Virus record (IMG/VR): IMGVR_UViG_3300045988_033451
Reading direction: 5' to 3' (one strand)
DNA: 60,779 nucleotides
Origin: a virus
Positions within the stretch are counted from its first letter, which is position 1; the number at the start of each line of letters is the position of its first letter. The position numbers were made by a program, and so were the translations under genes. This document shows, piece after piece, positions 51,827-53,054 of the stretch. Below the pieces are notes generated by a model. The model was not told the DNA's origin and ran no database searches. It saw only the letters and a list, made by a program, of their open reading frames with translations.

Positions 51827-53054
51827 TTAATATTTAATATTGAAATGTCCGTGTTCATTTACCCAATCAATAGCTTCCGCGTAGGTAATGCCGTTGTTTT
51901 TCAGAACGTACAGAAGGTTATGGAATTTAGGATGCGTTTGCTTTAAGCGTTCAAATCTGCTTTTCTTTTCTAAGTGACATCCGAATCCACACAGAACACA
52001 TCCGGTTCTATCGCATCCGGTAGTATGTAAAATCGGTCTACCTAGTTCAAATTCTTCCATATCCATAAAATCTGAAAGATTAGTCTGCCCGGTCTCTTCA
52101 TCATCTGTAACCACATCACCATAAACAGAACATATCGGCAAATTATTTTCTTTGATGTAAAGCAATACATCTTGTTCCGTCCAAAAGCTCATAGGGTTGC
52201 TGTGTGGTCTTTTTACATTGAAAGCATTACACCCATCCTGTAACCATTTCTGTGTACGCATAGTGCTTTCGCTTGCCATAACAGCTAAAATAGGTTTTCT
52301 TTTCGTTTGCTTTTCATAAGCAAATGCAGGTTTATGTTTCATTTCCATACAGCACATATCGCTTATATCAAATGGTGCATCAAGAAAAAACTTATATTTT
52401 TCTTGATTAAACTGACTATAATTGCCTTTACTATCCGTCAATTCTCCATTTAACCTACGTAGTCTGTATTCTGAACCGCTAGGGATAACTCCCATCTGCA
52501 AACTCTTGTACTGTTCGTTCTGCTTGTCTATTCTCCTGTCTATTCCTAGCAGATCTGCCATGTAGCAAGCATACGGGACTGTCTGTCTGTCTGTCTGTCT
52601 GTCTGTCTGTCTGTCTGTCTGTCTGTCTGTCTGTTAAGATTGTGTTATTACATTTTTGGCTGTCAAGGTATTTAACGTATTTTCTTGCACCACTAACGCA
52701 ATTTGAAACTTCTTTGCTTATCATTGGGAAACCATACTTTTCGCAAACTTCCGAAAATGAAATTTTTGGTTTCAAAACAATCAAATTTTGAAATGTCTGC
52801 GCAAATTTCTTTAATTCCGGATATTGCGTTGGAACATCGACAAACACCAACGGAATATCTTTATATTTGCAAACGTTTCGCACAATGTCTACCAATACTG
52901 TGCTGTCTTTCCCACCACTGAAACTGACGTAAACGCCTTCTTCTCCAAACCGATCGACCCATTCAGTTATCCTTCGTGCTGTCATTTTAATTTTTGCAGA
53001 AAGAGGAAGTGATTGCATCTGATACAAGTCTGTCATTGTATGTTTATTACCCAT
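51827..53054 (-). pseudogene. PAPS-reductase-family (PP-loop) gene split into two frames inside a (CTGT)14 tract. Either a phase-variable OFF state or a pseudogene.
   Basis: The N-terminal part (53054->) has the SFSGGKDS PP-loop. The C-terminal part (52561->51827) continues in the frame offset by 1 nt. The total length is 1 mod 3. Confidence 0.7.
52579..52634. repeat. Tetranucleotide simple-sequence repeat (CTGT)14
   Basis: Fifty-six nt of perfect repeat. Confidence 0.9.

Follow-up and report, generated by a model that had tools for sequence, protein, structure and literature searches.

A variable tetranucleotide repeat in a PAPS-reductase-like gene of temperate gut phages is a probable reversible ON/OFF switch

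Repeat-slippage phase variation is a textbook strategy of bacterial pathogens, as in the tetranucleotide-repeat contingency loci of Haemophilus influenzae and Neisseria (e.g., lic1A). The type III mod methyltransferase is likewise a tetranucleotide-repeat contingency locus (PMC1557822). Repeat switching in phages is reported in the literature that we searched for homopolymer tracts only, and these searches returned no description of the locus presented here, a PAPS-reductase-like gene that is divided by a tetranucleotide tract, (ACAG)14, in the viral record IMGVR_UViG_3300045988_033451 from IMG/VR (60,779 nt; this whole stretch of DNA is called the window below). We consider it probable that the tract forms a contingency locus, in which a hypermutable simple-sequence repeat within a phage coding region turns the gene ON and OFF.

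The mechanism is that of the classical bacterial tetranucleotide contingency locus, a kind that is already known and is rare in phages. As in the Haemophilus and Neisseria loci, which are often found in DNA-modification genes, a perfect 4-nt repeat lies within an open reading frame (ORF), the number of units is polymorphic in close relatives, and ON and OFF alleles coexist. Unlike those loci, the carrier is a temperate phage of gut Clostridia and not a pathogen chromosome, the alleles are known here from assemblies, and the gene belongs to the PAPS-reductase-like class, which was not found as phase-variable in the literature searched. Among phages, Campylobacter Fletchervirus phages have hypermutable polyG tracts in receptor-binding protein genes (Sorensen et al.), which a 2025 review treats as an exceptional case (PMC11959909). 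These too are phage-encoded simple-sequence repeats that diversify progeny phenotype, but they are homopolymers in the tail-fibre structural genes of virulent phages, whereas the present phage is temperate and its repeat, a long tetranucleotide tract, lies in the gene of an early-module enzyme. Coliphages T2 and T4 contain homopolymer contingency loci that include the DNA alpha-glucosyltransferase gene agt (Gomez, Barrick & Waters, bioRxiv 2025, PMC12633550), and T2 agt flips by homopolymer slippage, hedging bets between TgvAB, which attacks modified DNA, and McrBC, which attacks unmodified DNA (PMC12633550). In that system, as here, a phage gene is switched by reversible frameshifts, and the same trade-off logic is proposed for the present locus. 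The T2/T4 tracts are A-runs of 6-9 nt with mutant frequencies of about 1e-4 to 1e-3, in contrast to a tract of 56 nt with an OFF majority in nature, and that report mentions neither tetranucleotide repeats nor temperate or metagenomic phages (PMC12633550).

With regard to the enzyme, the closest described case is p0018 of the Vibrio crassostreae podophage 44E38.1, a fusion of a PAPS-reductase domain with Dam that belongs to an anti-Dnd system (Piel et al., bioRxiv 10.1101/2021.05.05.442762; Nat Microbiol 2022). Vibrio phages that gain the PAPS-Dam protein escape from host Dnd and lose infectivity on their previous host (10.1101/2021.05.05.442762). Both genes are phage-encoded and contain a PAPS_reduct domain, and in p0018 a role against phosphorothioate-based defence and a cost on the alternative host are experimentally supported; p0018, however, lacks a repeat and is joined to a Dam methylase, whereas the protein described here is unfused. 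The Vibrio-phage proteins that match it, which may or may not include p0018, are 25-30% identical. PAPS reductases have also been placed in Aca-regulated anti-defence operons (PMC13551039), and the alternative offered in the literature for phage PAPS reductases is that of a sulfur-metabolism auxiliary gene (bioRxiv 10.64898/2026.02.18.706556).

In the window, the gene occupies the minus strand from 53054 to 51827 and is made up of the following parts.

53063..53067, minus strand: Shine-Dalgarno-like AGGAG, 8 nt upstream of the ATG at 53054

52479..53054, minus strand: N-terminal ORF of the OFF allele, 191 aa, comprising the PP-loop half of PAPS_reduct, (TDRQ)4TD and then a 33-aa out-of-frame tail

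52902..52925, minus strand: PP-loop motif SFSGGKDS, the ATP pyrophosphatase signature, read from the sequence

52579..52634, minus strand: (ACAG)14 tract, equal to (CTGT)14 on the plus strand, 14 perfect units, the proposed hypermutable switch

51827..52578, minus strand: C-terminal two thirds of the gene in the frame offset by 1 nt, with the second PAPS_reduct half and the cysteine motifs

Tandem Repeats Finder reports the tract as a period of 4 with 14.0 copies and 100% matches, and a direct regular-expression scan agrees. The frame-0 ORF that starts at the ATG at 53054 reads the tract as (TDRQ)4TD and ends at 52479, giving 191 aa, while the C-terminal ORF (MADLLGIDRR...NIKY, 52561 to 51827, 244 aa) lies in a frame that is likewise open across the tract; reading the sequence before its internal ATG at 52561 revealed no Shine-Dalgarno-like site. 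The (ACAG)n repeat is stop-free in all three sense frames, each of which reads as a permutation of T-D-R-Q. The span from 53054 to 51827 measures 1228 nt (1 mod 3). The preliminary description of this sequence, which had reported the 14 perfect units, the PP-loop ORF, the 1-nt offset of the rest of the protein and the length of the span, is confirmed on all of these points by the repeat finder, the regular expression and the reading of the ORFs. It had also predicted that 13 or 16 units would restore one ORF, and rebuilding the gene with n units indeed gives a single ORF at n = 10, 13, 16 and 19 (403, 407, 411 and 415 aa, respectively). Its assignment of the gene to the PAPS-reductase family is borne out by Pfam, where the PAPS_reduct profile (PF01507; gathering cut-off 22.5 bits) is divided over both ORFs, each scoring above the cut-off (N-terminal ORF, profile 3-72, 31.8 bits; C-terminal ORF, profile 131-172, 25.6 bits). 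Dinucleotide-preserving shuffles of the window produced a period-4 or period-5 tract of at least 5 units in 0 of 200 cases, which excludes a chance origin. Only three such tracts are present in the 60.8-kb window, and they lie within 3.1 kb of one another, in the PAPS-reductase-like gene and in a neighbouring C5-cytosine DNA methyltransferase gene.

To place this allele among its relatives, we note that at least 597 loci in IMG/VR encode a related protein; 80 of these were fetched, and the 76 in which both gene halves are present (65-100% aa identity) were scored as ON when the N- and C-terminal frames agree and as OFF when they disagree. The tract is found at exactly the same place in 69 of the 76 relatives, as 2-17 perfect units between the conserved AACACAATCTTA and TTCCGTATGCTT, so the repeat is not a one-off insertion absent from relatives, as the preliminary description had considered it might be. 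Runs of at least 5 units occur in 55 loci, every mod-3 length class is represented, and the observed mixture comprises 27 ON and 49 OFF alleles. Among the tracts of at least 5 units, 14 are ON and 41 are OFF, a share that is not different from the one third expected at mutational equilibrium (p = 0.25).

The same share (14/55) would be expected without selection if the gene were a decaying pseudogene with a neutral microsatellite, in which OFF amounts to permanent loss, and the existence of four relatives that are OFF without any tract indicates that loss is tolerated. The integrity of the OFF alleles speaks against this explanation. Each of the 46 OFF alleles that still contain a tract (2 or more perfect units) becomes one ORF of 395-446 aa on a one-unit change, and none has any other stop or frameshift of the sort that the preliminary description had named as a sign of inactivation. 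The median ratio of nonsynonymous to synonymous substitution rates (dN/dS, pairwise, Nei-Gojobori) is 0.09-0.12 in both halves of the gene and alike for OFF/OFF, OFF/ON and ON/ON pairs, so that the untranslated C-terminal part of OFF alleles, at about 0.10, is under strong purifying selection, equal to that of ON alleles. Purifying selection downstream of a frameshift in lineages that were sampled OFF is possible only if the OFF state is transient. In addition, as detailed below, one sample has the ON form and another the OFF form of prophages whose flanks are identical, lineages that share only 52-58% protein identity retain the tract, and a (GA)n repeat has arisen at the same site elsewhere. 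Permanent decay is thus largely refuted, and we regard it as very improbable.

Change at the tract far outpaces that in the rest of the genome. Two prophages from different samples, L161 (7 units, ON, on a 436-kb scaffold) and L169 (14 units, OFF, on a 180-kb scaffold), have 0 mismatches across 3400 nt of upstream and 3000 nt of downstream flank. Similarly, L037, L038 and L041 have 3-4 differences per 3000 flanking positions (~0.1%), yet they carry 9, 6 and 8 units, respectively, and L006 and L008 carry 10 vs 16 units. The protein database contains a 407-aa protein, P0001, that is 99% identical to the 13-unit reconstruction, and an ON allele of the 13-unit length therefore exists. Near-identical proteins of 403, 399 and 395 aa differ solely in having (TDRQ)3, (TDRQ)2 and (TDRQ)1, which correspond to 10, 7 and 4 units.

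It should be noted that repeats are error-prone and that the window itself is broken in a 27-bp array at both ends, which could raise the suspicion that the count of 14 units is an assembly or sequencing error and that the true tract is in frame. A tract of 56 nt, however, fits well inside a short read, out-of-frame lengths predominate among the 76 contigs, and the exact 191-aa OFF product of the window, which requires 14 units, is encoded on 5 other contigs from at least 3 samples, all of which have 14 units. Given that these are independent assemblies, such an error, which the preliminary description had also envisaged, is extremely unlikely. An exact-sequence look-up of the 244-aa C-terminal ORF of the window gave no match, probably because gene callers choose another start.

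In the switch that we propose, slipped-strand mispairing at replication, of either the prophage or the replicating phage genome, would add or remove 4-nt units; we infer this mutational mechanism from established knowledge of such repeats. Each change of a unit would shift the frame downstream of the tract. In the present background, 10, 13 or 16 units would lead to a full-length enzyme of ~400 aa (ON), and other unit numbers would lead to a fragment of 160-195 aa that is missing two thirds of the protein (OFF). The window, at 14 units, would be OFF and one unit from ON. ON alleles would tolerate any in-frame length because the unit is stop-free and encodes a hydrophilic (TDRQ)n stretch in what is predicted to be a disordered surface loop, and a phage or lysogen population would always mix expressers and non-expressers. 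The stochastic ON/OFF switching by repeat number that the preliminary description suggested is supported by the conserved and variable tract, the intact OFF alleles and their equal dN/dS.

A further explanation is that out-of-frame alleles are never truly OFF, since programmed ribosomal frameshifting, or slippage of transcription, on the repeat might still yield the full-length protein from them. As no sense frame is closed within the tract, a shifted ribosome would meet no stop there. Sequences known to support frameshifting or transcriptional slippage are slippery heptamers and long homopolymers, however, and (ACAG)n is neither of these; moreover, the two out-of-frame classes would need opposite shifts, and both classes are common. 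Judging from the sequence of the tract and from these two classes, we give this explanation very little credence.

The position of the tract within the protein is also informative. In an AlphaFold2 model of the 13-unit allele (mean predicted local distance difference test, pLDDT, 82; predicted template modelling score, pTM, 0.78; input alignment of 123 sequences at 43-100% identity), the sole long segment below pLDDT 50 is formed by residues 137-189, which include the tract-encoded residues 142-158, and the tract is accordingly modelled as encoding a disordered loop. Homologues at 41-58% identity from Lachnospiraceae, Oscillospiraceae and other Clostridia are mostly repeat-free single ORFs, with a hydrophilic linker at this position that is hypervariable and differs in length. 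Selection might be imagined to target chiefly how long the (TDRQ)n linker is, so that the enzyme is tuned and out-of-frame alleles are a by-product, and it fits this idea that in-frame alleles span 4 to 17 units and that linker length varies across the family. Nevertheless, two thirds of the sampled alleles are out of frame, a cost without which a tri- or hexanucleotide repeat would tune the linker; the loop is predicted to be disordered and is unconserved; and the repeat of a second clade, (GA)n, is again non-triplet. Tuning of the linker is improbable as the main object of selection.

The evolutionary depth of the repeat can be judged from divergent lineages. L086 (a metagenome-assembled genome of Pseudobutyrivibrio) and L087 have (ACAG)10 at this position, and both are OFF. 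In the other clade, the same site contains (GA)6 in L084 (2348-2359; isolate Moryella indoligenes DSM 19659) and (GA)5 in L085 (3973-3982), both of which are OFF and would need 4 or 7 units to be ON. The (GA)n tract is a possible independent origin of the switch, and it lies in a culturable strain. A switch at this loop would either have been kept across deep divergence or have been gained more than once with different units, and a switch that is kept or regained in this manner argues for selection on switchability. DNA searches of GenBank phages found no close relative, and the protein matches in GenBank phages are at most 44% identical, all of them uninterrupted ORFs without the repeat; relatives in GTDB representative genomes reach 71% identity at most. 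A different site is involved in another clade (L121 2905-2920, L132 4322-4337, L139 and L158), where an in-frame (ACAT)3-4 run in the C-terminal half encodes LTYIHTYNL; at 3-4 units this run may or may not be unstable.

According to the sequence profiles and the model, the protein is a PP-loop enzyme and a member of the PAPS_reduct superfamily with an APS-reductase-like predicted fold. Its placement is at the superfamily level only, through Pfam PAPS_reduct, phrog_424 (E = 3.5e-39) and NCBIfam matches that are far under their equivalog cut-offs. Searches of the model with Foldseek gave as the best solved folds the [4Fe-4S] assimilatory APS reductases 2goy and 7lhs, followed by PAPS reductases, the PAPS domain of FAD synthase and CysD, with a probability of 1.00 and target-normalised template modelling scores of 0.49-0.64 for the APS/PAPS reductases and CysD and 0.27-0.28 for the longer FAD synthase chains. 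Identity to these solved structures is 10-14%, and the protein has a large insertion of its own at residues ~137-230. Sequence searches of the PDB, with the single sequence and with a profile, gave matches at the PP-loop level only, and a search of viral folds in BFVD gave nothing past the label "PAPS reductase". Across the 123 homologues, G48, D50 and S51 of the PP-loop are invariant and S44, F45, S46, G47 and K49 nearly so, and two cysteine motifs are conserved as follows.

52349..52354, minus strand: Cys-Cys dyad C233-C234 (P0001 numbering), invariant columns in the 123 homologues

51989..52000, minus strand: CxxC (C351, C354), then nearly invariant C358-H359; C351 and C354 invariant in the 123 homologues

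The CC...CxxC pattern ligates a [4Fe-4S] cluster in APS reductases, and by analogy the motif probably binds an Fe-S cluster here as well. In the assimilatory APS/PAPS reductase, CysH, the catalytic cysteine is located in a C-terminal ECGLH tail. This tail is not in the present sequence, the nearest equivalent being GCHLEK directly after the CxxC, with ~45 more residues following, and the equivalog cut-offs for CysH are not reached (NF002537, 27.9 vs 154 bits; TIGR02057, 17.3 vs 254; TIGR00434, 23.6 vs 165). A role as a sulfur-metabolism auxiliary gene consequently fits poorly. The identities of CysH, DndC and an anti-Dnd fusion were each considered and not assigned, given the cut-offs and tail for the first, matches confined to the PP-loop for the second, and the lack of a fusion for the third, Pfam finding no methyltransferase domain such as that of Dam in the PAPS-reductase-like protein.

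Among defence-related models in PADLOC, BrxP is matched by 123/123 members of the family (best 9e-18) and SspD by 123/123 (best 3e-11). The protein shares with DndC, SspD, BrxP and the APS reductases 2goy and 7lhs the PP-loop SGGxDS, the PAPS-reductase fold (as modelled) and the CC...CxxC pattern, and differs from them in that the matches cover ~60 residues, nearby partner genes and the ECGLH tail are absent, and it has its own insertion. By analogy with the Vibrio-phage precedent, we tentatively suggest that the enzyme may modify DNA or counter a host defence (e.g., a phosphorothioate-based system), a proposal held with less than even confidence. Expression would help on some hosts and be costly on others, so that a switch would pay; a costly, host-dependent anti-defence or DNA-modification activity is what a contingency locus would be expected to control. 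Taken to its full extent, the proposal is that a large temperate-phage family of human-gut Clostridia possesses a dedicated bet-hedging switch on a stand-alone, Fe-S-dependent PAPS-reductase-like enzyme, that this switch was kept over deep divergence and reinvented in a second clade with another unit, and that the enzyme either modifies phage DNA (by a phosphorothioate-type or other sulfur- or adenylate-dependent modification) or disarms a phosphorothioate-based defence. This fuller version is speculative, and it is rather doubtful that it holds in every part.

Several observations weigh against the interpretation of the locus as a selected switch on an anti-defence or DNA-modification enzyme. 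The four relatives without the tetranucleotide tract (L042, L044, L051 and L052) are OFF through a 2-nt difference in the adjacent A-run, and the gene is hence dispensable in at least some lineages. Compared with L049, these four have A3 vs A5 in the run just upstream (TTAAAGACAGAC vs TTAAAAAGACAGAC, at ~5960-5990 of each locus), and the out-of-frame A3 forms represent either a lineage locked in the OFF state or a homopolymer switch that is weaker. A neutral microsatellite would likewise give an ON fraction near 1/3, and the functional case rests on the intact ORFs and the low dN/dS. A single dataset (3300045988) is the source of many of the IMG/VR contigs, and their phylogenetic relatedness adds to making the counts non-independent; heterogeneity within populations and the rate of switching are judged from comparisons between assemblies. 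As for function, the BrxP and SspD matches of the window-type protein span residues 39-101, i.e., the PP-loop segment alone (~60 residues), and the DndC models match 12/123 members, weakly. No Dnd, Ssp or BREX partner genes, such as DndA/IscS, DndB, D and E, SspB and C, or PglZ/BrxC of BREX-4, were seen among the neighbours, the window as a whole not having been scanned gene by gene. Finally, the family has no fixed neighbours and occupies different modules from phage to phage: here it adjoins ssb, in a Ruminococcus prophage it lies between portal and head protease, and in L164 it adjoins an N6/N4 methylase.

The other repeats of the window are in the C5-cytosine DNA methyltransferase gene, which lies 1.5 kb downstream of the stop of the PAPS-reductase-like gene and 2.2 kb from its tract.

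48481..50365, minus strand: C5-cytosine DNA methyltransferase in two ORFs, 49379-50365 with motifs I-VIII and 48481-49233 with motifs IX-X and its own ATG

49507..49581, minus strand: (GCAGA)15 pentanucleotide tract, located after motif VIII; 7-13 units in relatives, or (GACA)4-7 there instead

50056..50075, minus strand: (TTAC)5 tract, located just before motif IV; 4 units in L001 and L002, tract lost in L003

The methyltransferase relatives that were compared include L001, L003, L019, L027, L070 and L080. The methyltransferases of L001, L002 and L003 are all frameshifted at the (TTAC) site. Downstream of the (GCAGA) tract, two overlapping frames are both conserved among relatives, each ending in a target-recognition-like motif (one of them ...EWK), and the third frame stops immediately; the first is the frame of the window and L019, the second that of L027 and L080. 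Judging from these reading frames, the methyltransferase could be a three-state switch with two alternative C-termini and an OFF state. The preliminary description had paired the PAPS-reductase-like gene with this repeat-bearing methyltransferase. The methyltransferase does carry variable repeats, but the pairing is not obligate: it lies within 6 kb of the PAPS-reductase-like gene in only 11/80 related loci, and the two genes are thus separate cassettes that do not form a functional pair. A 532-aa methylase that adjoins the gene in L161 and L162 was considered as an ON form of the methyltransferase of the window and rejected, as it is an unrelated Dcm without repeats.

The preliminary description had also counted two homing-endonuclease-like genes between the PAPS-reductase-like gene and the methyltransferase, where three ORFs are found: a 64-aa ORF and the two genes below, which overlap by 50 nt.

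50362-50952: GIY-YIG protein (phrog_19106), present in 63/80 related loci at 56-85% identity

50903-51589: HNH endonuclease, present in 9/80 related loci

Being present in 63/80 relatives, the GIY-YIG gene behaves like part of the core of the module and unlike a mobile homing endonuclease, and the HNH gene, from its distribution, resembles a genuine insertion.

The genome in the window is that of a temperate siphovirus and is essentially complete, with annotated integrase, anti-repressor, structural and replication genes; these include terminase, portal, major head protein, tape measure, tail fibres, endolysin, a DnaD-like replication initiator, RecT and SSB, together with the following.

39968-41233: tyrosine integrase

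The host is probably a member of the Lachnospiraceae, to go by the taxa of the GTDB matches. The PAPS-reductase-like gene belongs to the early recombination/replication module, immediately downstream of ssb, and its neighbours are SSB, YopX, DUF7694, an MBL hydrolase, RecT, an SMC-like ATPase, HNH, GIY-YIG and Dcm. The MBL-fold hydrolase (54739-55476), upstream of the gene, has a weak match to Pfam Anti-Pycsar_Apyc1 (17.6 bits vs a threshold of 50), and a Tad4-family gene is present in the same module of one relative (L170 238-585). These matches hint that the early region may gather anti-defence genes; the identity of the hydrolase as Apyc1 (anti-Pycsar) was not used as evidence, its score being far under threshold. 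Within the DnaD-like initiator gene (45967-46887), an in-frame 12-bp/36-bp tandem repeat at 46450-46540 (7.6 copies, 73% matches) may be iteron-like or a variable linker. A cluster of three tRNA genes (Ser-GCT, Val-TAC and Gln-TTG) is found at 27339-28132 on the minus strand. The 27-bp tandem array at both ends of the window (1-269 and 60257-60779; 10 and 19.4 copies) is part of one minus-strand gene that encodes unique N- and C-terminal domains and, in between, at least 29 nonapeptide repeats (AQIGSSGD/Y). When the ends are simply joined, the array is 5 nt out of register, which indicates that the array is either collapsed or incomplete; a circular or permuted genome, broken inside the array, probably underlies the contig.

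These data extend the long tetranucleotide contingency locus to hundreds of uncultured temperate gut phages (at least 597 IMG/VR loci), with OFF alleles in the majority, and this would be one of the few clear cases of phage bet-hedging by such means, with evidence from nature that bet-hedging in temperate gut phages can operate on an enzyme gene. Phage PAPS reductases are now annotated as sulfur-metabolism auxiliary genes or suspected to be anti-defence genes, and the natural ON and OFF alleles of the same phage offer a genetic handle on the function of these common genes. Annotation pipelines should be warned that such genes are called as two fragments or as pseudogenes. If the fuller proposal is true, populations of these phages and of their lysogens would always hold both modified and unmodified genomes and would be ready for hosts that restrict either one, and together with the repeat-controlled methyltransferase nearby, the locus would be a phage-borne counterpart of the bacterial 'phasevarion'.

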